Below are positions 3,102 to 17,528 of a stretch of DNA of 17,578 nucleotides, piece by piece. Position numbers and translations under genes: made by a program. The stretch's first letter is position 1. Each line of letters starts with the position of its first letter. This DNA is from a virus. The stretch is from UHGV virus genome UHGV-0086244. One strand, written 5' to 3'. The notes beneath the pieces were generated by a model, which was not told where the DNA came from, ran no database searches, and worked only from the letters and a program-made list of their open reading frames with translations.

Positions 3102-3710
3102 TTACTGCAACCTTTCCTGACGGAAATATGGTAACACTCGACTCCACTTATCATCCTGCCAAGGCTGGAATTTTACATGTGCCGTTTCTCTGGCGAGGAT
3201 TGCTCGCGCTCTGTTGAGTATCTGGGGATATTCTTGCTCGATAGAAGTAAAGCGACCGGCTTCGCGGTGCTCCGCGACCTGAAGAAGTGGAGTAACGTTC
3301 TGGCAGGCAGTTAACATCACATCACTTGCTCGCCATAACCAAGCAAGTGTGCAAAGTTCGTTATCAGTGAATTGTTTTGTGATTGGGAATTGTTGAATTT
3401 CTCGATCGAGAAGATCCAGCACCCAGCGGCGGAATTCTTTGGCCACAGGAGTACGAGCAAACATGGCGATCAAATGGGCTCCGCGAAGGCTAAATACTCG
3501 AGACTCCTGCATTCCACGAGGGGTGGTCACTTTGACCACCCTTGTCATCAGATCTGTGAATTCATCTGAGTGCCGAGAGTAAATGCGCTGAACTGCTTTA
3601 TCGTCCGCATATTCCAGTGCTAAACCAACTTCAGTGGCAGTAAGCCAAATTCTGTTATTGTGGCAAATCGGGGTAAACGTCGTTTTGTGGAATGCTAATT
3701 GAGTAGTCAT
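3102..3710 (-). CDS. Bro-N / KilA-N-like DNA-binding protein (202 aa), putative antirepressor
   Basis: N-terminal pattern FTPICHNNRIWLTATEVGLALEY...RGAHLIAMFARTPVAKEFRRWV resembles the Bro-N domain consensus (I-R-x-x-x-G-x-x-W-F-x-A-x-D-V-A-x-x-L); GAGGTGA RBS upstream of the ATG at 3710. Confidence 0.55.
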   Translation of the reverse strand: MTTQLAFHKTTFTPICHNNRIWLTATEVGLALEYADDKAVQRIYSRHSDEFTDLMTRVVKVTTPRGMQESRVFSLRGAHLIAMFARTPVAKEFRRWVLDLLDREIQQFPITKQFTDNELCTLAWLWRASDVMLTACQNVTPLLQVAEHREAGRFTSIEQEYPQILNRARAILARETAHVKFQPWQDDKWSRVLPYFRQERLQ

Positions 3711-3734: not shown

Positions 3735-3767
3735 TCACCACCAACGACGCCAATCGACTGGTGGTGA
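3735..3767. promoter_or_regulatory. Inverted repeat (caccacca-N15-tggtggtg) just upstream of the Bro-N gene RBS; possible operator or 5'-UTR structure
   Basis: Read directly from the sequence: tcaccaccaacgacgccaatcgactggtggtga. Confidence 0.3.
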
Positions 3768-3865
3768 ACTGTGTAAGGTTGGCGTAACCGGCTACTCAAA
3801 CCCGGCGCTTCCGAAGAAGCCCTCACACAGCCCACCATAATTTGGGCATAGCCGTGCTTAGCGCA

Positions 3866-3888
3866 CAAAAAAACCGCTTAACGCGGTA
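3866..3888 (-). terminator. Candidate intrinsic terminator on the minus strand (5-bp GC-rich stem ACCGC/GCGGU, loop GUUAA, then U7)
   Basis: Minus-strand RNA would read accgcguuaagcgguuuuuuug; lies about 85 nt downstream of the small hydrophobic ORF 3974..4063. Confidence 0.4.
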
Positions 3889-3973
3889 TGCGTTGAGTAG
3901 TATCCCGGGACGCCAATCCCGTGTGCCGATTTTGCGGCAACGCACAGAATATAGCGCCGGATAAATCATGTCG

Positions 3974-4341: not shown

Positions 4342-5301
4342 TCAGCTAATTGCAAAGATATTAAAAATAACTTTAGGGAGTGCGAAAGATGAAATAAAAA
4401 GCACAACCATAAAAATGGCATGCTTAATAAATGATGAGCTTGTAAAAAAAGCTCCTCCCTTGCTAATCCCTGCCATAAAAACAAAGATAAAGCTAATTAA
4501 GCACGACCATATCACTAACAAAACTGAGATTGACATGCTTAAAGACATATCGCGAGAAAATACGTTTACTGAAATAGAAATGAAAGTAAAGAAAGAAGCA
4601 AATAAAGCAATGACACCCAGCATTGAGTTCCTTGCTGTAATTACTTCCGATTCAAAGCTTTTAACTTTCTCATGTATATCTTTTTCAGCATTTGATAATG
4701 TTGCATCAAATTGCTCAATCTTTGCAGTTTGCTGAGATAATGAAGACATTACCTTACCTATTTTTCTTTTAGTATCATTAATATTCTTTTTGCTCTTATT
4801 CAACTCTTGCGAAAAATTGGTTAGTTGATCATTGATATTTTTCCAGAGGATGTTATCAATATCACTTTTTGTATATTTTTTTACATTCTCTTTATTAAAA
4901 GAAATTGTAGATTCAGAATTATTATTAACAAAGTAATTAGATAAAATGGCATTAGAGACAGTATTATCCATCACCGGCACAGTTGCTTTTGAACTGTATT
5001 TTATAGCTTCATGCAACATTTCTTTTTCATTAACAAAAAGAGAGGTTTTTATTAAGTTTTGTGGTGCCGCGTCTTTGATAGATATACTTTCCCGCTCTTT
5101 ATTTGAAGCTGTTGCAGTTTTATTATCTATCTGCAAATTACTAATTTTTTGTACCCCTCCTGTATACGTAGATGTACTATTCGATACTTGTGAATTAGAA
5201 TAAAGTGAATGATGCGCAGTTCTTTTTGCCATGTCATCGTTGACTATAGCATTATTATTTGCAATTCTTTTTATATCCTTTTTATTATCATCCTTATTCA
5301 T
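4342..5301 (-). CDS. Hypothetical membrane-anchored protein (319 aa): polar Asn/Ser/Lys-rich N-terminal region with probable coiled coil, and about three C-terminal transmembrane helices
   Basis: Long ORF in a strongly AT-rich cassette; GAGGTGG RBS 5 nt upstream; C-terminal hydrophobic segments MLGVIALFASFFTFISISVNVF, ISVLLVIWSCLISFIFVFMAGI and AIFMVVLFISSFALPKVIF. Confidence 0.65.
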   Translation of the reverse strand: MNKDDNKKDIKRIANNNAIVNDDMAKRTAHHSLYSNSQVSNSTSTYTGGVQKISNLQIDNKTATASNKERESISIKDAAPQNLIKTSLFVNEKEMLHEAIKYSSKATVPVMDNTVSNAILSNYFVNNNSESTISFNKENVKKYTKSDIDNILWKNINDQLTNFSQELNKSKKNINDTKRKIGKVMSSLSQQTAKIEQFDATLSNAEKDIHEKVKSFESEVITARNSMLGVIALFASFFTFISISVNVFSRDMSLSMSISVLLVIWSCLISFIFVFMAGISKGGAFFTSSSFIKHAIFMVVLFISSFALPKVIFNIFAIS

Positions 5302-5315
5302 TCAGCCACCTCACA

Positions 5316-5981
5316 TTACTGAATTTCATTCACTTTACTTAAAAAGGCTTTTTTTGTTTTTTCTGCGGTATATTTATCTTTAAATATAAAACTCTCGATT
5401 GTATTCACATCGATCTGTTTCACTAGCATTGGTTGTTCTCTGACAAGATCATATCCTGACATAATCGACAAATGACAATTAAATATGGACTGCTCAAACT
5501 CGAATTTTTTATTATACATTAAATTAATATCTTCAATTATTTCGCTATCATTCTGCATGTTGTTACTAAGATAGTTTTTAACAATCTCTTTGTTTGGGTT
5601 GTTGTTTAATTCCGCCTTAACGGCCACCAAGCCTATTCTGATAATATCCTTATTGAGTTCTTTATGGATATCAACCACACTATCGAAAACTTCTTGAAAC
5701 AAATGTAAGTCTACCTCTTGCTCAGAATCCATACGTTCAAAAAACAAATCACATCTCTGCAGTGAGCATTGAACTCTAAATTTATTATCTATAGAAAACA
5801 ATTGGAGACGAGGAATCTCTGGTGGGGTATCCATAGGTAAAACGCCCAACATCATATTGTTTGTTAATTCAATACCTGCCTTCTTTTTAAAAGTTTGCCT
5901 AATAAAATACGACATTCCATCGAAATCGACAGTCGTTGATGAATCGTAAAAAAATACCATTTGTAACTGTATGATTTTCAT
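5316..5981 (-). CDS. Hypothetical soluble protein (221 aa), first gene of an AT-rich two-gene cassette; start codon uncertain
   Basis: Long ORF 14 nt upstream of the 319-aa gene on the same strand; no recognisable motif; AT-rich codon usage unlike the flanking lambda genes. Confidence 0.55.
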   Translation of the reverse strand: MKIIQLQMVFFYDSSTTVDFDGMSYFIRQTFKKKAGIELTNNMMLGVLPMDTPPEIPRLQLFSIDNKFRVQCSLQRCDLFFERMDSEQEVDLHLFQEVFDSVVDIHKELNKDIIRIGLVAVKAELNNNPNKEIVKNYLSNNMQNDSEIIEDINLMYNKKFEFEQSIFNCHLSIMSGYDLVREQPMLVKQIDVNTIESFIFKDKYTAEKTKKAFLSKVNEIQ

Positions 5982-6133: not shown

Positions 6134-6856
6134 TTATTTCGAAATCTTTTTATATAATGCTTTTCCCCCTTTCAGCCCAAACTTAGCTTTGATTTCTGCG
6201 ATCTTCGCCAGAGCCTGTGCACGATTTAGAGGTCTACCGCCCATGACAGGAAGTTGTTTTACTGGTTCAGGTATAGCCTCACCACGGTTAATTCGTGCGG
6301 TCATACAGGACAGTTCATCGGCAGCCTTGCGCCGTAATTCCGCGTCAGTCAACGCATTGGCCCGCATGTTCTGATACAGGTTGGTAACCAGCCAGTAGTG
6401 CGCGTTTGATTTCCACGGATAAGACTCTGCATCCGGATACAGCCCACGCTTCCGGCAATACTCGTAAACCATATCAACCAGCTCGCTGGCGTTTGGCAGC
6501 CCGGCGGTAACGGATGCTTCTTCCCGGCACCAGGCAACAAACTGCCCGGGTGATGGCAGGAATGGTCGATTCTGCCGACGGGCTACGCGCATTCCTGCGT
6601 TAACCTGTTCCATTGTGGTGATCCCGTTTTCCCGGAAAGCCAGAACCCACTGGCGGCGGATTTCGTTCAGTTCATTCTGGTCACGGTTAGCCAGGCTCGC
6701 CGGGAAAGTTGCCAGTAACTGCCTGAACACACCGTTGATGATCTGCGCTACCTGCTGTACCTGTGGCTTTTCGTCGTACTGTTCCGGCATGTTGTTGGCG
6801 ATCCGGCGCATCTGCTCACAGTCAAAGTTAACCATTTGTGCGGCGATGTTTTTCAT
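6134..6856 (-). CDS. P: Replication protein P (DnaB helicase loader), lambda-type with a divergent C-terminal tail
   Basis: Protein MKNIAAQMVNFDCEQMRRIANNMPEQYDEKPQVQQVAQIINGVF... matches lambda P from memory until about the last 10 residues; start overlaps the O stop (ATGA). Confidence 0.95.
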   Translation of the reverse strand: MKNIAAQMVNFDCEQMRRIANNMPEQYDEKPQVQQVAQIINGVFRQLLATFPASLANRDQNELNEIRRQWVLAFRENGITTMEQVNAGMRVARRQNRPFLPSPGQFVAWCREEASVTAGLPNASELVDMVYEYCRKRGLYPDAESYPWKSNAHYWLVTNLYQNMRANALTDAELRRKAADELSCMTARINRGEAIPEPVKQLPVMGGRPLNRAQALAKIAEIKAKFGLKGGKALYKKISK

Positions 6857-7782
6857 AAATCCACCCCATAAATCCAGTCAGTGTTTGTCAGGTCCAGTTT
6901 TGATTTTCCGGCTGTCACTCCTGCCTGTTGCTTGTTACGGTTGATTTCGAGCTGGGTCCACTTGTCGCGGAGTTTGGCCGGACTTAGCACGTTACCGGAC
7001 CAGAAGTTGTCCTGGCATGCCCAGCGGAACAGCACGCACATGTCGCGGTGGTTACGTCCGTCACGTTCACGCATCAGGCGGATATCGTTAGCCCACCCTG
7101 CAAAATTCGGTTTTCTGGCTGATGGCGCGATGGTCTTCACCATGTCAAACATCCACTCTGCGGCGGTCAGGTCTTCTGCTGTCCCCCACTTGCTGCCGCT
7201 CTGAATTGCAGCATCCGGTTTCACCACAGGAAGATCGTTTTCTGGTTGGTCAGAGGATTCGCCAGAATTCTCGGACGAAAAAGGTTTTATATTGTCTTTT
7301 GTTAGTTTGTCTTTTGTGTTTACCTGATTCGGGTAAACGCCTTTACCTGATTTGGGTAAACTTTTTTTACCTGATTCAGGTAAATTTACCTCTTTCAGGT
7401 AAACTTTATTTTTCTTACCTGATTCGGGTAATGTTGACCATTCACTGACCACATTATTAATGCCGGTATTCCGCCCGCTCTGAATAAAAATCCCACGCTT
7501 TACCAGAACACTTTTTGCAGCAGAACACTTGTGCGGCAATATCCCGGTTAATTCGGAAAGTTGCTCGTTGCTAACCCAATCCAGTTTTTTATTAAAGCCA
7601 TATGTTTTGCGCATGACAGCCAGAAAGACCAGAAGCTGGTGCTGTGTTAATCCGGCCAGCATCACAGCTTCCAGCAACTCATTTGCAATGCGCGTATAAC
7701 CATCATCGAGATCTGCCACGCGCGGCTCCTTTTGTGCCGCATCCGGCACTGGAAAATTGAATATCTCAGCAGTGTTTGCCAT
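6853..7782 (-). CDS. O: Replication initiator O (chimeric: non-lambda N-terminal iteron-binding domain, lambda-like C-terminal domain); start placed at internal ATG 7782
   Basis: C-terminal half (HSGESSDQPENDLPVVKPDAAIQSGSKWGTAEDLTAAEWMFDMVKTIAPSARKPNF...) matches lambda O from memory; GGAGG RBS before the ATG at 7782; N-terminal MANTAEIFNF parallels lambda O MTNTAKILNF; the origin iterons lie inside the gene. Confidence 0.9.
   Translation of the reverse strand: MANTAEIFNFPVPDAAQKEPRVADLDDGYTRIANELLEAVMLAGLTQHQLLVFLAVMRKTYGFNKKLDWVSNEQLSELTGILPHKCSAAKSVLVKRGIFIQSGRNTGINNVVSEWSTLPESGKKNKVYLKEVNLPESGKKSLPKSGKGVYPNQVNTKDKLTKDNIKPFSSENSGESSDQPENDLPVVKPDAAIQSGSKWGTAEDLTAAEWMFDMVKTIAPSARKPNFAGWANDIRLMRERDGRNHRDMCVLFRWACQDNFWSGNVLSPAKLRDKWTQLEINRNKQQAGVTAGKSKLDLTNTDWIYGVDL
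7318..7434. repeat. Replication origin: five 17-bp iterons (TACCTGATTCGGGTAAA-type, each with inverted ends TTTACC/GGTAAA) with an adjacent AT-rich tract at about 7285..7320
   Basis: Direct repeats at about 7321, 7344, 7368, 7387 and 7416; located inside O as in lambda ori; AT-rich segment on the side expected from the lambda arrangement. Confidence 0.8.
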
Positions 7783-7868
7783 AATTCCTCCCGCAATGAG
7801 TGTGTTACGATTTGCACCTGAAAGTCGGTTCTGTTCCAGCAGACCGGCTTTCGCCATTTCTGAACCTG

Positions 7869-8414
7869 TCATATCGCCCCCAGCATGGTAGTAACCATCG
7901 CCATCAATGGACCAGCCAGATCTGGGTCCACACGAAACATCGACACAATACCTTCACTAATTTCCTTCAGTTTCTGGTGGCGTGGTGCGTTGAGAATGAC
8001 AGCCTGTTTTGCCTCACTGAGTTCCTTTTCCATTTCAGCCAACCTAGCCATGAAGCTATCCTGCTCAACCAGGTAACCGCGATATTCCAGCGGTAGTACC
8101 GCCAGAATTGCCGGGGTCAGTTCACGCACGTTATTTCGGTATTTTTCAGAATCGAATTTGTTATCGAGGAAGCGGAACAGCTTCTGGCGTGCACGGCTGA
8201 CATCATCAGGGAAATCGATGGTGCCGCCGCCCTGCTCCCGATACTCATTCACAATGAGTGTGGCAACGACATCCTGATTATCTTCAGCCGACCAGGCGCG
8301 GACGGCATCACGAATTTTTTCGTGGCCTGGCACCTGTTTTATTTGAGAACGATTTATCACCGCAGTCGGGCTAAATCCGCTAGTCTGTTGGTATGTAAGT
8401 GGTTGCATAATCAT
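7869..8414 (-). CDS. Hypothetical regulatory protein in the cII position (181 aa), possibly a CII-like / CP76-type or YdaT-like regulator
   Basis: Position between cro-like and O, same strand; much longer than lambda CII; family assignment is from memory of gene-order patterns only. Confidence 0.45.
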   Translation of the reverse strand: MIMQPLTYQQTSGFSPTAVINRSQIKQVPGHEKIRDAVRAWSAEDNQDVVATLIVNEYREQGGGTIDFPDDVSRARQKLFRFLDNKFDSEKYRNNVRELTPAILAVLPLEYRGYLVEQDSFMARLAEMEKELSEAKQAVILNAPRHQKLKEISEGIVSMFRVDPDLAGPLMAMVTTMLGAI

Positions 8415-8438: not shown

Positions 8439-8666
8439 TTAGGCGGCAGAATTACTCGCGTTAAACAATGGTGCGAGGTCGGGACGAATATCTGCTGGCT
8501 TAATCTTTCCACCAGTGGCTGAGACAATTTTCATTACATAGCGGGCATCAATTCCGCCACCGTGTAGCCAACGCCAAACAGTGGGCTGGGCTACACCGCA
8601 TAGATCTGCCAGTCGTTTTTGACTACCTGTAATACTGATTGCGAGTTGAATGGTTTGATTTGTCAT
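8439..8666 (-). CDS. Cro-like small HTH regulator (75 aa from the ATG at 8666)
   Basis: Small ORF divergent from the repressor gene; HTH-like segment GSQKRLADLCGVAQPTVWRW; AGGA 9 nt upstream of the ATG; immediately downstream of the pR-like promoter. Confidence 0.65.
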   Translation of the reverse strand: MTNQTIQLAISITGSQKRLADLCGVAQPTVWRWLHGGGIDARYVMKIVSATGGKIKPADIRPDLAPLFNASNSAA

Positions 8667-8697
8667 TATCAATTCCTATTGGTATTACAATGAATGG

Positions 8698-8726
8698 ATA
8701 ATAGCAATGCGTATTAACCATGGCAA
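8698..8726 (-). promoter_or_regulatory. pR-like sigma70 promoter for the cro-like gene (-35 TTGCCA, 17-bp spacer, -10 TATTAT on the minus strand)
   Basis: Hexamers read from the reverse complement; both overlap the two operator-like 16-bp sites. Confidence 0.5.
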
Positions 8727-8740
8727 TAGCAAAACGTGTT
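8700..8740. promoter_or_regulatory. OR-like operator pair: two 16-bp sites AATAGCAATGCGTATT (8700..8715) and AATAGCAAAACGTGTT (8725..8740), 25 bp centre to centre
   Basis: Same AATAGCAA-N4-T(A/G)TT motif recurs twice at the pL-like region with identical spacing. Confidence 0.55.
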
Positions 8741-8767
8741 TTGACCATCAATACGCAAGCGTATAAA
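8741..8767 (+). promoter_or_regulatory. Candidate pRM-like promoter for the repressor (-35 TTGACC, 15-bp spacer, -10 TATAAA), overlapping the 14-bp palindrome ATACGCAAGCGTAT
   Basis: Hexamers seen in sequence; the short spacer is suboptimal; would give a near-leaderless cI mRNA starting close to the ATG at 8777. Confidence 0.3.
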
Positions 8768-8776
8768 TTAAAACTT

Positions 8777-9469
8777 ATGAAAAAAGAAACTCTTGCTGAT
8801 CGCTTAAACCTAGCGATGGAACAATCTGGGATGTCTCAAGGCGCTCTTGCAAAGGCGTCTGGCGTAGCTCAACCCACAATCTGGAGACTGACAAGCGGCA
8901 ACGCGCGCGGCTCAACAAAAATTGTTGAAATAGCTAATGCATTGGGTGTTCGAACAGAGTGGCTCTCATCAGGCATAGGCCCGATGAGAAATGACGGTCA
9001 ACAATCAGGGAAGCCTACTGTCAACCATTCCAAATACTTCAAGATTGACGTTCTTGATATAGAAGTGAGTGCCGGGCCGGGAGTCATCAACCGTGAGTTT
9101 GTAGAAGTCCTACGCTCGGTTGAGTACTCGTTTGACGATGCTCGTCACATGTTCGATGGCAGGAAGGCGGAAAATATCCGCATCATTAACGTACGTGGTG
9201 ACAGCATGTCAGGAACAATCGAACCAGGTGATCTGCTGTTCGTTGATATCACGGTTAAATCTTTCGACGGTGATGGCATCTATGCGTTTCTGTACGACGA
9301 CACAGCCCATGTAAAGCGCCTGCAAATGATGAAGGATAAGCTGTTGGTTATCTCTGATAACAAGAGCTACTCACCGTGGGACCCGATCGAGAAAGACGAG
9401 ATGAACCGGGTGTTCATTTTTGGGAAAGTCATCGGGAGCATGCCGCAGACCTACAGGAAGCATGGGTAG
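8777..9469 (+). CDS. cI: CI-type prophage repressor: N-terminal XRE-family HTH and C-terminal S24 (LexA-like) autopeptidase domain; not lambda cI
   Basis: HTH segment LADRLNLAMEQSGMSQGALAKASGVAQPTIWRL; C-terminal VRGDSMSGTIEPGDLLFVD ... K motif typical of S24 peptidases; the longest ORF starts at 8720 but would overlap the pR-like promoter, so the ATG at 8777 is preferred. Confidence 0.85.
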   Translation: MKKETLADRLNLAMEQSGMSQGALAKASGVAQPTIWRLTSGNARGSTKIVEIANALGVRTEWLSSGIGPMRNDGQQSGKPTVNHSKYFKIDVLDIEVSAGPGVINREFVEVLRSVEYSFDDARHMFDGRKAENIRIINVRGDSMSGTIEPGDLLFVDITVKSFDGDGIYAFLYDDTAHVKRLQMMKDKLLVISDNKSYSPWDPIEKDEMNRVFIFGKVIGSMPQTYRKHG

Positions 9470-9509
9470 GTAGTATGTAAAGAATTACCTTTGGTTGATT
9501 TGTAATAGC

Positions 9510-9539
9510 TACCGATTACGTTATCGGTAGCTATAAGAA
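9510..9539. promoter_or_regulatory. Perfect 12-bp-arm inverted repeat (ATAGCTACCGAT-N6-ATCGGTAGCTAT) between cI and the rex-slot module; terminator-like hairpin or protein-binding palindrome
   Basis: Read directly; followed on the plus strand by a short U-rich stretch (aagaaattttta). Confidence 0.35.
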
Positions 9540-9592
9540 ATTTTTATGTCTTTAACTGTGTTTATTTATTCAATACTAGTTGGACTATAGCA

Positions 9593-10615
9593 ATGAAAGA
9601 TAACAGACAAAAAGTCGTTCATTATAAAAAAGCAGTAATCCCACACAGCAAATCATCATTACAAAACATACTACTTAGTATTATAGGTGAGGGCGGCGTT
9701 GCAGAAAAAGTACTTAGTAGACAAGAAAAAATAACACCTTCAGATGAAAATTCGGGGTATCGTTTCTTAAATAAAAGCGACACATACAAAACTATACTTT
9801 TTGGGCAACTGGTTTTATTTGAAAAAGACAAAAGCCAGTCTCTATTAGAGCTTAGTGATAATGTTAAATTTTATGACATTAACTCCATCACGTCTAATGA
9901 TATAATTATTGATGGAGATAAACGTAGTGACAAAAAAAGAGAGTTTGTAGATTCAATTTTATATTTTGGTGTACTAAACAACCATGTCATGATCGTTCAA
10001 TCCACATCGCTTCGAGCAAGGGAGCTTGAGGCGCATTTGAATTGGCTAATTAATACATTCACAGATGAAAAAGAATCTGTGTTAATGCTTCAAGATAAGC
10101 CATCCGAAGAAACGATGAAAAAAATGGAGAAAGCACCAGCCAAGAGCATAAAAATTGGTGGATTACCCATTACTTCAGAAGTTAAAAATTCAGAGAACCA
10201 AACACCCTCCTTTTCAAATGGTTCGGTGAAGACAATAAAATACCGCCCAATAGGGAAAGGAGGTGCGCTACTAAAAGCATTTTTTGGCGATAACTGGGCA
10301 AATGATATAAACATTAAAGATTCATTAGATGAGGCCAATTTACAAGTAAGCCTCGAGATTACATACTTCAGAAAAACAAATGATAGCGGTCAAGCTGTTA
10401 TAGACAGTATTGCTACCTCACTACGACATCTAGATGAGGATGATATTAGCATCAAACTTCAAGGCGGTGGGGAAATAACGGGAAAAGAGATAAAATTATC
10501 CGGAAAAATTAGCGTTGAACATAACAATGGCATTATTGATGAAAATGATTTATTCTTAAAAATGCATAAGTGGCTGTTCTCAAAACTTGATGCCGGAGAA
10601 TTGGTTGCAAAATAA
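9593..10615 (+). CDS. Hypothetical soluble protein (340 aa) occupying the rexA position; candidate sensor of a RexAB-like exclusion module
   Basis: Long ORF immediately downstream of cI on the same strand, in an AT-rich block; no recognisable similarity to lambda RexA from memory. Confidence 0.6.
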   Translation: MKDNRQKVVHYKKAVIPHSKSSLQNILLSIIGEGGVAEKVLSRQEKITPSDENSGYRFLNKSDTYKTILFGQLVLFEKDKSQSLLELSDNVKFYDINSITSNDIIIDGDKRSDKKREFVDSILYFGVLNNHVMIVQSTSLRARELEAHLNWLINTFTDEKESVLMLQDKPSEETMKKMEKAPAKSIKIGGLPITSEVKNSENQTPSFSNGSVKTIKYRPIGKGGALLKAFFGDNWANDINIKDSLDEANLQVSLEITYFRKTNDSGQAVIDSIATSLRHLDEDDISIKLQGGGEITGKEIKLSGKISVEHNNGIIDENDLFLKMHKWLFSKLDAGELVAK

Positions 10616-10636
10616 CCTACCAAAAGGAGGGCGATA

Positions 10637-11143
10637 ATGAAATCGAACATCATCCACCTTATTGGTATGTTGGTCTTCTATTTTGCTGGTTACTTTTTGT
10701 TCAAGTCAGCATTGGGCTATATTACACCGGGTGTTGTCCTAACAGCTCCGTGGGCTGTGGTTGGACTCATGCAATTGCCATTATCATATTGTATACAAGC
10801 CATTTTTAAGGCAAATGAGGCCAATGACCACTCGTCTTTAACCCCTAGTGAGGTTAGGCGATTAGTGCCAATAGTCAAATCCAAGAGACTGAAATTGGTT
10901 TTATTATTAGCTTTCTATGTATTTTCAACTTTGTTTGTAATCTTGGGGTTAATAGCAAGCACAAATGATCAAGCCCTACTCTTCAGGGTCTTAAAAATTT
11001 CAGGTGGATTACTCTTTATTTCTCTCTATACCAGTGTATTCGTTCATAAAATAATGGTTGAGCTTCAAGAGTTTAAAGCGTTATTAAACCGAAGAGAATC
11101 AGAGAAGAAGGAAAGAGAGTCACTCCTTGATAGATTAAAATGA
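10637..11143 (+). CDS. Hypothetical 4-TM membrane protein (168 aa) occupying the rexB position; candidate membrane effector
   Basis: AGGAGG RBS 7 nt upstream; four hydrophobic segments (IIHLIGMLVFYFAGYFLF, VVLTAPWAVVGLMQLPL, LVLLLAFYVFSTLFVILGLIA, LLFISLYTSVFV); charged C-terminal tail; followed by a strong terminator. Confidence 0.65.
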   Translation: MKSNIIHLIGMLVFYFAGYFLFKSALGYITPGVVLTAPWAVVGLMQLPLSYCIQAIFKANEANDHSSLTPSEVRRLVPIVKSKRLKLVLLLAFYVFSTLFVILGLIASTNDQALLFRVLKISGGLLFISLYTSVFVHKIMVELQEFKALLNRRESEKKERESLLDRLK

Positions 11144-11153
11144 CCCCCCCCTC

Positions 11154-11180
11154 CCCGGCCGTCGTGCCGGGTTTTCTTTT
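11154..11180 (+). terminator. Intrinsic terminator after the rex-slot module (stem CCCGGC/GCCGGG, loop CGTCGT, then TTTTCTTTT)
   Basis: GC-rich hairpin followed by a T-tract on the plus strand, directly after the stop of the 168-aa gene. Confidence 0.75.
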
Positions 11181-11305
11181 GCCTCCCCTCATCACACACC
11201 GTTCAAAAAACCACCATAACCCCCGCTTCAGTTATCGCTATGCGATGCAAGTCACAAAATTAATTCCTTTTGCTATCAAACAGTTAATATCAAAATACAT
11301 CAATC

Positions 11306-11346
11306 AATAGCAATAAGTATTGATATCACCAATAGCAATAGCTATT
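11306..11346. promoter_or_regulatory. OL-like operator pair: AATAGCAATAAGTATT (11306..11321) and AATAGCAATAGCTATT (11331..11346), 25 bp centre to centre
   Basis: Same 16-bp motif and spacing as the OR-like sites at 8700..8740. Confidence 0.55.
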
Positions 11347-11348
11347 AT
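11320..11348 (+). promoter_or_regulatory. pL-like sigma70 promoter (-35 TTGATA, 17-bp spacer, -10 TATTAT) overlapping both OL-like sites
   Basis: Hexamers and spacing read directly; oriented towards gam-bet-exo-xis-int as lambda pL. Confidence 0.55.
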
Positions 11349-11624
11349 CACCATGTCGCAACAACACAACGATACGGCAACCACCTGATTCGCCGTTGCG
11401 ATGACCGCTTAGATCCGCAGCTTGAATTTCAGCAGGCTCCGGGGAGTGCGAGGGGTGAAGCGGACGCGTGAACGTCGGTGTGACCAGCTGAAATCAACTC
11501 AACACTTCATACCTCAGTCGCTTCAACGAGGCGGCTTAGTTATGACAACCGGCGGCCTCCACCGCCTGAATACGCGCAGAAGTCTCTATATGTTCAGCAG
11601 CCCAGCTTACGGGCAGGAGTTTTT

Positions 11625-12279: not shown

Positions 12280-12576
12280 ATGAACGCTTATTACATTCAG
12301 GATCGTCTTGAGGCTCAGAGCTGGGCGCGTCACTACCAGCAGATCGCCCGTGAAGGGAAAGAGGCAGAACTGGCAGACGACATGGAAAAAGGCCTGCCCC
12401 AGCACCTGTTTGAATCGCTATGCATCGATCATTTGCAACGCCACGGGGCCAGCAAAAAAGCCATTACCCGTGCGTTTGATGACGATGTTGAGTTTCAGGA
12501 GCGCATGGCAGAACACATCCGGTACATGGTTGAAACCATTGCTCACCACCAGGTTGATATTGATTCAGAGGTATAA
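12280..12576 (+). CDS. gam: Gam (RecBCD inhibitor), short 98-aa form only
   Basis: Protein [60 protein letters not shown]... matches the C-terminal 98 aa of lambda Gam from memory; upstream frame has no in-frame ATG and differs from lambda. Confidence 0.9.
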
Positions 12577-12581
12577 AACGG

Positions 12582-13367
12582 ATGAGTACAGCACTCGCAA
12601 CGCTGGCTGGGAAGCTGGCTGAACGAGTCGGCATGGATTCTGTCGACCCACAGGAACTGATCACCACTCTTCGCCAGACGGCATTTAAAGGTGATGCCAG
12701 CGATGCGCAGTTCATCGCATTGCTGATCGTCGCCAACCAGTACGGTCTTAATCCGTGGACGAAAGAAATTTACGCCTTCCCTGATAAGCAGAACGGCATC
12801 GTTCCGGTGGTGGGCGTTGATGGCTGGTCCCGCATCATCAACGAAAACCAGCAGTTTGACGGCATGGACTTTGAACAGGACAACGAATCCTGCACATGCC
12901 GGATTTACCGCAAAGACCGCAATCATCCGATCTGCGTTACCGAGTGGATGGATGAATGCCGCCGCGAACCATTCAAAACCCGCGAAGGCAGAGAAATCAC
13001 CGGACCGTGGCAGTCGCATCCCAAACGGATGTTACGGCATAAAGCCATGATTCAGTGTGCCCGTCTGGCCTTCGGATTTGCTGGTATCTATGACAAGGAT
13101 GAAGCCGAGCGCATTGTCGAAAATACTGCATACACTGCAGAACGTCAGCCGGAACGCGACATCACTCCGGTTAACGATGAAACCATGCAGGAGATTAACA
13201 CTCTGCTGATCGCCCTGGATAAAACATGGGATGACGACTTATTGCCGCTCTGTTCCCAGATATTTCGCCGCGACATTCGCGCATCGTCAGAACTGACACA
13301 GGCCGAAGCAGTGAAAGCTCTTGGATTCCTGAAACAGAAAGCCACTGAGCAGAAGGTGGCAGCATGA
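12582..13367 (+). CDS. bet: Bet (Red-beta single-strand annealing protein)
   Basis: Protein [66 protein letters not shown]... essentially identical to lambda Bet from memory. Confidence 0.97.
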
Positions 13368-14044
13368 CACCGGACATTATCCTGCAGCGTACCGGGATCG
13401 ACGTGAGAGCTGTCGAACAGGGGGATGATGCATGGCACAAATTACGGCTCGGCGTCATCACCGCTTCAGAAGTTCACAACGTGATAGCAAAGCCCCGATC
13501 AGGAAAGAAGTGGCCTGACATGAAAATGTCCTACTTCCACACCCTGCTAGCTGAGGTTTGCACCGGTGTGGCTCCGGAAGTTAACGCTAAAGCGCTGGCC
13601 TGGGGAAAACAGTACGAGAACGACGCCAGAACCCTGTTTGAGTTCACTTCCGGCGTAAATGTTATTGAATCCCCGATCATCTATCGCGACGAAAGTATGC
13701 GCACCGCCTGCTCTCCCGATGGTTTATGCAGTGACGGCAATGGCCTTGAGCTGAAATGCCCGTTTACCTCCCGGGATTTCATGAAATTCCGGCTCGGTGG
13801 TTTCGAGGCCATAAAGTCGGCTTACATGGCCCAGGTGCAGTACAGCATGTGGGTGACGCGAAAAGATGCCTGGTACTTTGCCAACTATGACCCGCGTATG
13901 AAGCGTGAAGGCCTGCATTATGTCGTGATTGAGCGGAATGAAAAGTATATAGCGAGTTTTGACGAGATGGTGCCGGAGTTCATCGAAAAAATGGACGAGG
14001 CACTGGCTGAAATTGGTTTTGTATTTGGGGAGCAATGGCGATGA
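13364..14044 (+). CDS. exo: Exo (lambda 5'-3' exonuclease, Red-alpha)
   Basis: Protein [65 protein letters not shown]... matches lambda Exo from memory; start overlaps the bet stop. Confidence 0.97.
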
Positions 14045-15209: not shown

Positions 15210-15812
15210 TCATTCAGTATCATCACGCGCGGTCTGTGCATATGTCACTACCGCACCTAATATATTAATTTTCTTTTCAACATAGATAATATTATCGTAC
15301 TCATAATTGCCATACGGATAGCAAATGCGAATATTCTCATGTAGATCGGGGTCATCCACCTCAGCTCCAGAACAACTTTTTGAACTACCGGAAGTATACC
15401 GATACGGTGCAACATAAGACGATGTCTCTCCAGGCAAAAAATAAGTTAGTGTCGTAAGGGGTATAATCAGAAAAAATCCAGCAAATATGCACATCCCTGC
15501 ATAAACCTTAAGGTATGCTGACAGACTCTTCCAGCCTCTTTGTTTTACTATCCCCTTCTTAACCCAAAACAGAGATAACAGAAAAGCTATTCCCATGCTA
15601 AACAGAATGTAATAGTGGGATATACTCTGATTAAGAAACGTGACCCTGTAGATATCTGCCCGCCACCAGAAGAAAAGGAAAATAAAGATCAGCCCTGAAA
15701 CTGTCATGCAAATCAAATAAGGATACGAATCTTTTTTCATGTTTAGCGCCCATAAAATTTTTCCTGACCCGGACAAATTTACCATCCATTTTTTGCGCAG
15801 AAAATAGCTCAT
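15210..15812 (-). CDS. Hypothetical inner-membrane protein (200 aa, about three TM helices plus a roughly 75-aa soluble C-terminal domain); moron in the ea22/ea8.5 position
   Basis: AT-rich ORF antisense to the pL operon; hydrophobic segments YLICMTVSGLIFIFLFFWW, YYILFSMGIAFLLSLFWV and VYAGMCIFAGFFLIIPLTTLTYFL; start codon uncertain. Confidence 0.6.
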   Translation of the reverse strand: MSYFLRKKWMVNLSGSGKILWALNMKKDSYPYLICMTVSGLIFIFLFFWWRADIYRVTFLNQSISHYYILFSMGIAFLLSLFWVKKGIVKQRGWKSLSAYLKVYAGMCIFAGFFLIIPLTTLTYFLPGETSSYVAPYRYTSGSSKSCSGAEVDDPDLHENIRICYPYGNYEYDNIIYVEKKINILGAVVTYAQTARDDTE

Positions 15813-16261: not shown

Positions 16262-16480
16262 ATGTACTTGACACTTCAGGAGTGGAACGCACGCCAGCGA
16301 CGCCCAAGAAGCCTTGAAACAGTTCGTCGATGGGTACGCGAGTGCAGGATATTCCCTCCTCCGGTTAAGGATGGAAGAGAGTATCTGTTCCACGAATCAG
16401 CGGTAAAGGTTGACTTAAATCGACCAGTAACAGGTAGCCTTTTGAAGAGGATCAGAAATGGGAAGAAGGCGAAGTCATGA
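16262..16480 (+). CDS. xis: Excisionase Xis
   Basis: Protein MYLTLQEWNARQRRPRSLETVRRWVRECRIFPPPVKDGREYLFHESAVKVDLNRPVTGSLLKRIRNGKKAKS matches lambda Xis from memory; overlaps the int start. Confidence 0.95.
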   Translation: MYLTLQEWNARQRRPRSLETVRRWVRECRIFPPPVKDGREYLFHESAVKVDLNRPVTGSLLKRIRNGKKAKS

Positions 16481-17528
16481 GCGCCGGGATTTACCCCCTA
16501 ACCTTTATATAAGAAACAATGGATATTACTGCTACAGGGACCCAAGGACGGGTAAAGAGTTTGGATTAGGCAGAGACAGGCGAATCGCAATCACTGAAGC
16601 TATACAGGCCAACATTGAGTTATTTTCAGGACACAAACACAAGCCTCTGACAGCGAGAATCAACAGTGATAATTCCGTTACGTTACATTCATGGCTTGAT
16701 CGCTACGAAAAAATCCTGGCCAGCAGAGGAATCAAGCAGAAGACACTCATAAATTACATGAGCAAAATTAAAGCAATAAGGAGGGGTCTGCCTGATGCTC
16801 CACTTGAAGACATCACCACAAAAGAAATTGCGGCAATGCTCAATGGATACATAGACGAGGGCAAGGCGGCGTCAGCCAAGTTAATCAGATCAACACTGAG
16901 CGATGCATTCCGAGAGGCAATAGCTGAAGGCCATATAACAACAAACCCTGTCGCTGCCACTCGCGCAGCAAAATCAGAGGTAAGGAGATCAAGACTTACG
17001 GCTGACGAATACCTGAAAATTTATCAAGCAGCAGAATCATCACCATGTTGGCTCAGACTTGCAATGGAACTGGCTGTTGTTACCGGGCAACGAGTTGGTG
17101 ATTTATGCGAAATGAAGTGGTCTGATATCGTAGATGGATATCTTTATGTCGAGCAAAGCAAAACAGGCGTAAAAATTGCCATCCCAACAGTATTGCATGT
17201 TGATGCTCTCGGAATATCAATGAAGGAAACACTTGATAAATGCAAAGAGATTCTTGGCGGAGAAACCATAATTGCATCTACTCGTCGCGAACCGCTTTCA
17301 TCCGGCACAGTATCAAGGTATTTTATGCGCGCACGAAAAGCATCAGGTCTTTCCTTCGAAGGGGATCCGCCTACCTTTCACGAGTTGCGCAGTTTGTCTG
17401 CAAGACTCTATGAGAAGCAGATAAGCGATAAGTTTGCTCAACATCTTCTCGGGCATAAGTCGGACACCATGGCATCACAGTATCGTGATGACAGAGGCAG
17501 GGAGTGGGACAAAATTGAAATCAAATAA
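16458..17528 (+). CDS. int: Tyrosine integrase Int (lambda-type, 356 aa)
   Basis: Protein MGRRRSHERRDLPPNLYIRNNGYYCYRDPRTGKEFGLGRDRRIAITEAIQANIELF... with C-terminal HLLGHKSDTMASQYRDDRG catalytic region; matches lambda Int from memory. Confidence 0.97.
   Translation: MGRRRSHERRDLPPNLYIRNNGYYCYRDPRTGKEFGLGRDRRIAITEAIQANIELFSGHKHKPLTARINSDNSVTLHSWLDRYEKILASRGIKQKTLINYMSKIKAIRRGLPDAPLEDITTKEIAAMLNGYIDEGKAASAKLIRSTLSDAFREAIAEGHITTNPVAATRAAKSEVRRSRLTADEYLKIYQAAESSPCWLRLAMELAVVTGQRVGDLCEMKWSDIVDGYLYVEQSKTGVKIAIPTVLHVDALGISMKETLDKCKEILGGETIIASTRREPLSSGTVSRYFMRARKASGLSFEGDPPTFHELRSLSARLYEKQISDKFAQHLLGHKSDTMASQYRDDRGREWDKIEIK

Follow-up and report, generated by a model that had tools for sequence, protein, structure and literature searches.

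Introduction

No abortive-infection system has been known for longer than the Rex system of bacteriophage lambda, and how it is triggered and gated is still unclear. The paper describing the structure of RexA reports a globular domain that is split (residues 1-139 plus 248-279), has a seven-stranded sheet and is interrupted by a dimerisation domain, and names RdgC, IML3, CHL4 and an epimerase as structural neighbours. Five Rex-like systems have been described so far (PMC12894663). For RexABpp (PP_5643/PP_5644), encoded by the Pseudomonas putida prophage P1, defence needs both genes; RexApp binds DNA, and its overproduction causes RexBpp-dependent membrane permeabilisation and growth arrest with no depolarisation (PMC12894663). 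Here we describe a gene pair, A-B, in UHGV virus genome UHGV-0086244, a stretch of viral DNA of 17,578 nucleotides (nt) that was analysed as a whole and is called the window below. Gene A (positions 9593-10615, + strand) encodes a soluble protein of 340 residues with a predicted RexA-like fold, and gene B (10637-11143, + strand) encodes an inner-membrane protein of 168 residues with four transmembrane (TM) helices, assigned from hydropathy, charge, AlphaFold2 (AF2) modelling and family alignments.

We put at roughly 60% the probability that A-B is a remote relative, at the level of structure, of the lambda RexA/RexB exclusion (abortive-infection) system. The pair probably works as a Rex-like abortive-infection or exclusion module. 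On this reading A-B is no new kind of system but a widespread relative of RexAB-type systems that has so far escaped annotation.

Results

By predicted structure, the product of gene A is very likely a RexA-fold protein. An AF2 model computed template-free from 48 homologues reached a mean predicted local distance difference test score (pLDDT) of 71 and a predicted template-modelling score (pTM) of 0.69, with a confident N-terminal seven-stranded domain, a confident C-terminal helix and a poorly defined middle. In the model, a split globular domain formed by approximately residues 1-160 together with the C-terminal helix 317-333 encloses a larger, low-confidence middle domain (approximately 165-311). 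The RexA-type plan of a split globular domain with an inserted domain is, as predicted, present in A, and the predicted fold best matches lambda RexA. Since this domain plan appears to be that of RexA with a longer insert, we regard A as a RexA-fold protein. A carries the conserved motif REFxDSILYFGVLxNH, and its highest 19-residue Kyte-Doolittle mean is 1.1, so that no TM segment is present. When the model was searched with Foldseek against BFVD, five uncharacterised phage proteins were recovered (E 3e-13 to 1e-5). The best of these matches comes from the metagenomic phage ctylc9, which is also the source of one of the better, non-significant matches of B; together they hint at still more remote pairs.

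The protein encoded by gene B contains hydrophobic helices at approximately residues 5-27, 33-57, 87-108 and 113-137, and its AF2 model consists of four long helices (mean pLDDT 86). The positive-inside rule suggests an N-in/C-in topology, with short outer loops, a central loop of charge +4 and a C-terminal tail of charge +2. Residues 58-86 form a basic, cytoplasmic loop with conserved E72, R74, R75 and K83, and the C-terminal helix of 31 residues is charged and likewise cytoplasmic. The residues conserved throughout the family (G18, W39, P48, Q54, E72, R74, R75, K83, S97, S108, G123 and S129) fall into two groups, the motif of the cytoplasmic loop and polar or small positions within the TM helices, which we infer to be a docking site and a pore lining, respectively. 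B is the presumed effector of the pair.

Both genes belong to large families that travel together. A word-indexed search found 129 homologues of A in Enterobacterales, Aeromonas, Pseudomonas, Halomonas/Cobetia, methanotrophs and Oceanospirillum, and an exhaustive hidden Markov model (HMM) search expanded the A family to at least 782 representative clusters (50% identity) at E<=1e-3, of which 289 lie at E<=1e-30. The family profile of B retrieved 46 proteins. In six distant contexts a gene of 170-182 codons follows A every time (6/6), and those products that were aligned belong to the B family. A synteny scan using one genome per species covered 31 loci, two of them truncated. The open reading frame (ORF) downstream of A matches the B HMM in 26 of the 31 (E 4e-9 to 5e-86); at two further loci the B gene has an overlapping start, and at a Cytophagales locus A is followed by a four-TM ORF that does not match the B HMM. 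A B-family gene follows A in 28 of the 29 intact species-level loci, and the 29th carries a four-TM ORF. Given their homologues, their conserved pairing and their transcription in a 99%-identical prophage (below), A and B are real genes, not chance ORFs.

Two short contigs from metagenome-assembled genomes, assigned to Actinomycetes (L019) and Ureibacillus (L025), also contain A-B pairs, 46-51% identical to the E. coli proteins. These Gram-positive occurrences are probably binning contamination and not a spread of the family outside Proteobacteria.

The window represents the early region of an E. coli prophage of the lambdoid type. Over positions 9470-11400 it shares 99.1% identity with Perceval (OV696612), a phage that E. 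coli LF82 carries as a prophage; the Perceval annotation calls A a 'Hypothetical protein' and B a 'transmembrane protein'. Of 5,426 complete E. coli genomes, 42 have the full A-B region, and those listed label it throughout as two hypothetical proteins. Directly upstream of A lies a cI-type repressor gene (8777-9469, + strand; Pfam HTH_3 and Peptidase_S24), whose frame has its earliest ATG/GTG/TTG at 8720 and its likely start at 8777, as in the Perceval annotation. A pRM-like site, recognised by sequence, occupies 8741-8769, and cI is a probable source of read-through transcription into the pair. On the other side, a pL-like promoter (TTGATA-17-TATTAT, 11320-11348, + strand) and three OL-type operator repeats of 16-17 nt, AATAGCAAnnnGTATT, at 11259-11276 (inverted), 11305-11321 and 11330-11346 (+ strand) mark the downstream boundary of the slot. 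Since these repeats recur between cro and cI (8665-8740) and overlap the pL-like promoter, A-B sits exactly between cI and OL/pL.

Spacers of 123 base pairs (bp) and 21 bp separate cI from A and A from B, respectively, and the G+C content (GC) of the pair is low: A has 34.9% and B 37.5%, compared with 48.6% in cI and 45.3% in the remaining window. Gene B is preceded by the Shine-Dalgarno sequence AAGGAGG (10624-10630, + strand), 6 nt ahead of its ATG; none comparable to it was seen in the sequence for gene A. An intrinsic terminator (11154-11180, + strand) closes the pair. Its stem-loop, CCCGGC-cgtcgt-GCCGGG at 11154-11171, has an all-GC stem of 6 bp and a loop of 6 nt and is followed by TTTTCTTTT. 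The first-pass annotation of the window had described an AT-rich operon directly downstream of CI, in the slot that holds rexA-rexB in lambda, composed of a 340-residue soluble protein and a 168-residue protein with four hydrophobic helices, with a strong AGGAGG ribosome-binding site on the second gene and an intrinsic terminator at the end. That description stands on each point: A is devoid of a hydrophobic segment, hydropathy and AF2 agree on the helices of B, and the position between cI and OL/pL, the base composition, the Shine-Dalgarno sequence and the GC stem followed by TTTTCTTTT are as given above.

The spacer between cI and A contains a perfect hairpin with a 12-bp stem, ATAGCTACCGAT-tacgtt-ATCGGTAGCTAT (9505-9534, + strand). 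The predicted RNA fold of the spacer (9470-9600) has an energy of -32.8 kcal/mol, with z = -3.5 against shuffled sequences. The hairpin has no adjacent T-run and was not called by the terminator scan; it may act as an attenuator of pRM read-through, a processing site or a cassette boundary. Its interpretation as a CI operator was rejected, as its likeness to the OR/OL repeat is no better than chance. A search of the A-B region against Rfam found no RNA family.

Comparison of related prophages indicates that A-B is an AT-rich cargo cassette in a variable slot between cI and OL/pL. With about 96% identity and at least 80% coverage, the cI allele is found in 719 E. coli genomes; A-B is found in only 42. 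Two sister prophages, from E. coli strains 319 and S1-KEN-03-A, have a cI about 96% identical to that of the window and share the flanking genes cI, YdaT, O, P and kil/gam/bet. Their slots (L048 4306-5907 and L049 4274-5775) hold a SIR2-family protein in one and a hypothetical protein with a Ser/Thr kinase in the other. The presence of SIR2 or kinase genes in the slot of A-B indicates cargo exchange at this site, and published work recognises the interval between cI and N as both mosaic and a site of defence, where rexAB and bstA are found (PMC8585504).

This position also bears on an explanation in which the main role of A-B is control of the lysis-lysogeny switch or prophage maintenance, and not defence. 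A, being RexA-like, would stabilise the lytic configuration through CI/Cro and DNA, and B would act as a modulator of A or shield phage proteins from proteolysis. Such activities are documented for RexA and RexB (PMC11077077), and distant hosts, too, have A-B immediately after a cI-type repressor: of the 25 upstream ORFs scanned, 10 encode a Peptidase_S24/HTH repressor located directly upstream of A on the same strand. Against this, the pair is not always near a repressor. In Klebsiella aerogenes it lies between Q and the lysis genes, in Aeromonas it follows a P4-type primase, and in Oceanospirillum it adjoins a DUF3987 primase element; under the same cI, moreover, its place can be taken by SIR2 or kinase cargo. 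We consider a principal role in the switch improbable, although switch and defence roles are not mutually exclusive.

Expression in lysogens was evaluated from published RNA sequencing (RNA-seq) of LF82 (PMC9928086), using the Perceval locus (L001 6123-7673), which represents a 99%-identical prophage and not the window's own strain. Values were taken from the supplementary tables for five conditions as log2(fpkm+5), where fpkm denotes fragments per kilobase per million mapped reads (PMC9928086). B is expressed at 8.4-10.4 across all five conditions, A at 4.2-5.2 in LB overnight, 7.4-7.8 in B1, 9.6 in B6, 6.9 in MB1 and 6.4-6.5 in MB6, and cI at 6.2-8.1, compared with 2.3-3.4, at the floor, for kil, gam, bet, the cro-like gene and cII (PMC9928086). 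With cI, A and B transcribed and their lytic neighbours silent, we conclude that the pair is expressed in lysogens. Silence of these genes in lysogens had been named in the first-pass annotation as a finding that would argue against a defence role; in LF82/Perceval, both A and B are transcribed.

The relative levels of these transcripts require further explanation. In every condition B lies above A, and in B6 the level of A is about 5-fold that of cI. One transcript from pRM does not suffice to explain this, and one or more extra promoters or differential RNA stability must contribute. In lambda, the pLIT promoter inside rexA transcribes rexB alone. A search for an internal promoter of B found 12 sigma-70-like sites in the region, several of them inside A (9879-9906, 10213-10241 and 10339-10367), but this number lies within the shuffle expectation of 8.4 +/- 3.5 and none of the sites could be assigned.

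The expression data bear on a second explanation, in which A-B is a moron that does not serve in defence. B would alter host physiology (stress tolerance, transport or macrophage survival) or block DNA entry (superinfection exclusion), with A as an accessory or regulator. B (LF82_152) is listed as a moron, 81-fold over the prophage background against 11-fold for cI (PMC9928086), and is the most highly transcribed moron of Perceval in LF82 in all conditions, macrophages included. Compared with LB overnight, transcripts of A are significantly more abundant in macrophages at 6 h, with a log2 fold change of 1.8 (PMC9928086). Some members of the B family also give weak, non-significant Pfam matches to SieB and holin. 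These matches, however, have E values of 0.4 or higher, B shows no signal for any transporter family, and both the strict pairing of A with B and the RexA-like fold of A would be left unexplained. We therefore regard a moron of this type as quite unlikely. Whatever its role, the function of B bears on the biology of LF82, a Crohn's-associated strain.

Sequence searches place A and B outside the families modelled to date. At E<=1 neither protein is matched by any model of Pfam, PADLOC or NCBIfam. PDB sequences, searched with a profile, gave no match, and in PHROGs the two match only families 3482 and 16807, which are of unknown function. As controls, lambda RexA was recovered by Pfam PF15969 (1e-97) and PADLOC PDLC02339 (9e-110), and lambda RexB by Pfam PF15968 (8.5e-92) and PADLOC PDLC02340 (8.6e-61). 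These searches bear out the view of the first-pass annotation that the pair belongs to an uncharacterised family with no recognisable Rex sequence: no Pfam, PADLOC or NCBIfam model covers it, and the Pfam/PADLOC Rex models, positive for the lambda controls, were null, as was hhalign. The comparison with RexA/RexB that it had proposed gave a divided outcome, as sequence profiles were negative, the fold of A was positive and B had no significant structural match.

Three other assignments were considered and rejected. For Kiwa (four-TM KwaA with the DUF4868 protein KwaB), neither protein gave a PADLOC or Pfam match at E<=1, and the Kiwa gene order is opposite to that of A-B. A CBASS effector was rejected on the basis of no significant model match, and SieB/holin on the non-significant E values given above.

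Elsewhere in the window, the genes follow a lambdoid order. Replication genes P (6134-6856, - strand) and O (6853-7872, - strand) are present together with nin-region genes, followed by a YdaT-family gene in the cII position (7869-8414, - strand; PF06254 YdaT_toxin, E 1e-29) and a cro-like, YdaS-like helix-turn-helix gene in the cro position (8439-8672, - strand). The YdaT gene and the YdaS-like gene in these positions indicate a switch of the Rac/YdaS-YdaT type and not of the lambda Cro/CII type. Downstream of OL/pL lie a kil-like region, gam, bet and exo (12280-14044, + strand), and then xis and int (16262-17528, + strand).

Other genes without assignment were observed as well. An orphan, AT-rich gene pair (about 30% GC; 4342-5981, - strand) between P and the nin region encodes a 221-residue protein (5316-5981) and a 319-residue protein (4342-5301) whose middle is a coiled coil and which has hydrophobic helices at its C-terminal end. 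The pair has no PADLOC match, and its two Pfam matches, at E about 0.004, fall far short of the gathering cut-off; in Perceval this position is taken by RenD and EmrE. It is a candidate for a further cargo or defence module. An ORF of 210 codons (2134-2766, - strand), whose start is overlapped by an ORF of 58 codons (2763-2939, - strand), has no Pfam or PADLOC match, and the shorter ORF has no Pfam match; their GC is 39-40%. An ORF of 200 codons (15210-15812, - strand; GC about 38%), situated between xis/int and the early-left genes but oriented against them, encodes several hydrophobic stretches, judged by eye, has no family match and is a possible moron. Finally, Rfam identified a C4 antisense RNA (3757-3842, - strand) and isrK (3867-3939, - strand), and a Bro-N/P22_AR_C antirepressor gene (3102-3710, - strand) lies immediately downstream of them. 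This arrangement looks like a P1/P7-style c4-ant immunity module in a lambdoid prophage.

Discussion

Several findings weigh against a Rex relationship of A-B and must be set beside the predicted fold of A. The model of A is only moderately confident, and its middle domain, the counterpart of the RexA dimerisation domain, has a pLDDT of 31-60. The Foldseek search of A against BFVD gave no match bearing the RexA name, and that of B gave no significant match (none at E<0.1; a 165-residue Sbash protein appeared at E 1.4), RexB itself having no solved structure. The RexA and RexB models match 0 of 48 A-family and 0 of 37 B-family members even at E<=10. In hhalign, probabilities were 0.15% for A with RexA and 0.08-0.23% for B with RexB, using 255 sequences for A and 50 for B, as well as smaller alignments, against lambda RexA/RexB alone or 4-sequence alignments from Klebsiella, Hafnia and Salmonella phages; the only alignment of B with RexB, non-significant, fell in the S-x-RRL region of the B central loop. 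Both proteins are also longer than their lambda counterparts. A has 340 residues and RexA 279, a difference of 61 that accompanies the larger middle domain, and B has 168 residues and RexB 144, the additional 24 accompanying a longer central loop and an extra C-terminal cytoplasmic helix of 31 residues. B transcripts exceed those of A about 1.5- to 20-fold in all LF82 conditions, and in lambda surplus RexB suppresses exclusion. Lastly, phenotype data for the A/B family were not found in the published literature.

Some of these findings are also those expected of a defence pair that resembles Rex in architecture and differs from it in mechanism. In one version, following the pattern of Butters gp30/gp31, the soluble RexA-fold protein would be the toxic or antiviral effector and the membrane protein would sequester it; in another, A would share just a general DNA-binding scaffold of the RdgC/CENP-N type. 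Proteins with the RexA fold are non-specific DNA binders able to act in the absence of RexB, Butters gp30/gp31 does reverse the roles of the two proteins, the large excess of B over A in LF82 is what a sequestering partner would show, and no homology between B and RexB is demonstrable. We judge a departure in mechanism unlikely, if a little less so than a dedicated switch element or a moron, and retain the Rex-like reading of A-B.

In a Rex-like mechanism, drawn by analogy with lambda RexAB and RexABpp, B would sit in the inner membrane as a closed oligomer, and A would serve as a cytoplasmic, probably dimeric, DNA-binding sensor. A trigger supplied by a superinfecting phage, either a phage protein or a nucleoprotein intermediate of replication or recombination, would cause A to engage B, plausibly through the conserved basic loop of B (E72/R74/R75/K83) or its C-terminal helix. 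B would then compromise membrane integrity or energetics, growth would stop and the infection would abort. Like RexA, A may also influence the CI/Cro switch of its own prophage.

If the pair does function in this manner, the diversity of the A/B family would make it possible to map the sensor-effector interface and trigger specificity by covariation, questions that have stood for Rex for 70 years. A large sister family with an E. coli member offers comparative leverage through its conserved residues, and T4 rII and coliphage panels are applicable to it. A-B also exposes a gap in defence annotation, as the pair has no Pfam, PADLOC or NCBIfam model and reads 'hypothetical protein (x2)' in those of its RefSeq E. 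coli carriers that were listed. More tentatively, lambda RexAB may be a rare outlier of a larger, sequence-diverse superfamily that pairs RexA-fold sensors with four-TM effectors. Within that superfamily, the A/B family, which extends over Enterobacterales, Pseudomonas, Aeromonas, methanotrophs and marine Gammaproteobacteria, could be the form that predominates in Proteobacteria.

Among known systems, the cargoes BstA, SIR2 and Ser/Thr kinase resemble A-B in lying behind a prophage repressor, in being expressed in lysogens and in being closed by a terminator. Their proteins and mechanisms are unrelated to those of A-B, and location is the sole link. The DNA-clamp fold of RdgC and CENP-N/CHL4-IML3 matches the predicted structure of A much more weakly than does RexA, and RdgC belongs to a chromosomal housekeeping context without a membrane partner.

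In actinobacteriophages, prophage gene pairs encode a RexA-like cytosolic protein together with a four-TM protein (Sbash gp30/gp31, CarolAnn gp44/gp43 and Butters gp30/gp31). Like A-B, these pairs are expressed in lysogens; they exclude heterotypic phages, and some adjoin the immunity repressor. In contrast, they belong to another host phylum, and in Butters gp30/gp31 the effector role is reversed.

The best published precedent for A-B is RexABpp of P. putida. Its proteins, of about 37 kDa and at least 181 residues, are similar in size to A and B, the second has four TM helices, and a CI-like repressor precedes the pair. HHpred connects RexApp with RexA at 98% probability (PMC12894663), whereas the A family gives no hhalign signal, and the N- and C-terminal residues of RexABpp, as deduced from published primers only, match 0 of the 312 A/B-family proteins fetched.

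The closest system is lambda RexA/RexB (PF15969/PF15968; PDB 8TWQ). In both, a soluble gene is followed on the same strand by a small four-TM gene, both genes stand between cI and OL/pL and their spacers are similar (112 and 15 bp in lambda, 123 and 21 bp for A-B), the genes are AT-richer than cI and closed by a terminator, and expression occurs in lysogens. RexB and B share four TM helices, an N-in/C-in topology and a central loop of charge +4. No sequence or profile similarity to A or B is detectable, and abundance differs as well, RexA proper being rare (19 phage records) against the at least 782 clusters of the A family. The first-pass annotation had proposed that the architecture mirrors RexA/RexB, and the gene order, topology, spacers and predicted fold of A agree with that proposal. 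By architecture, position, sensor fold as predicted for A, and effector topology, lambda RexAB is the closest known system to A-B.

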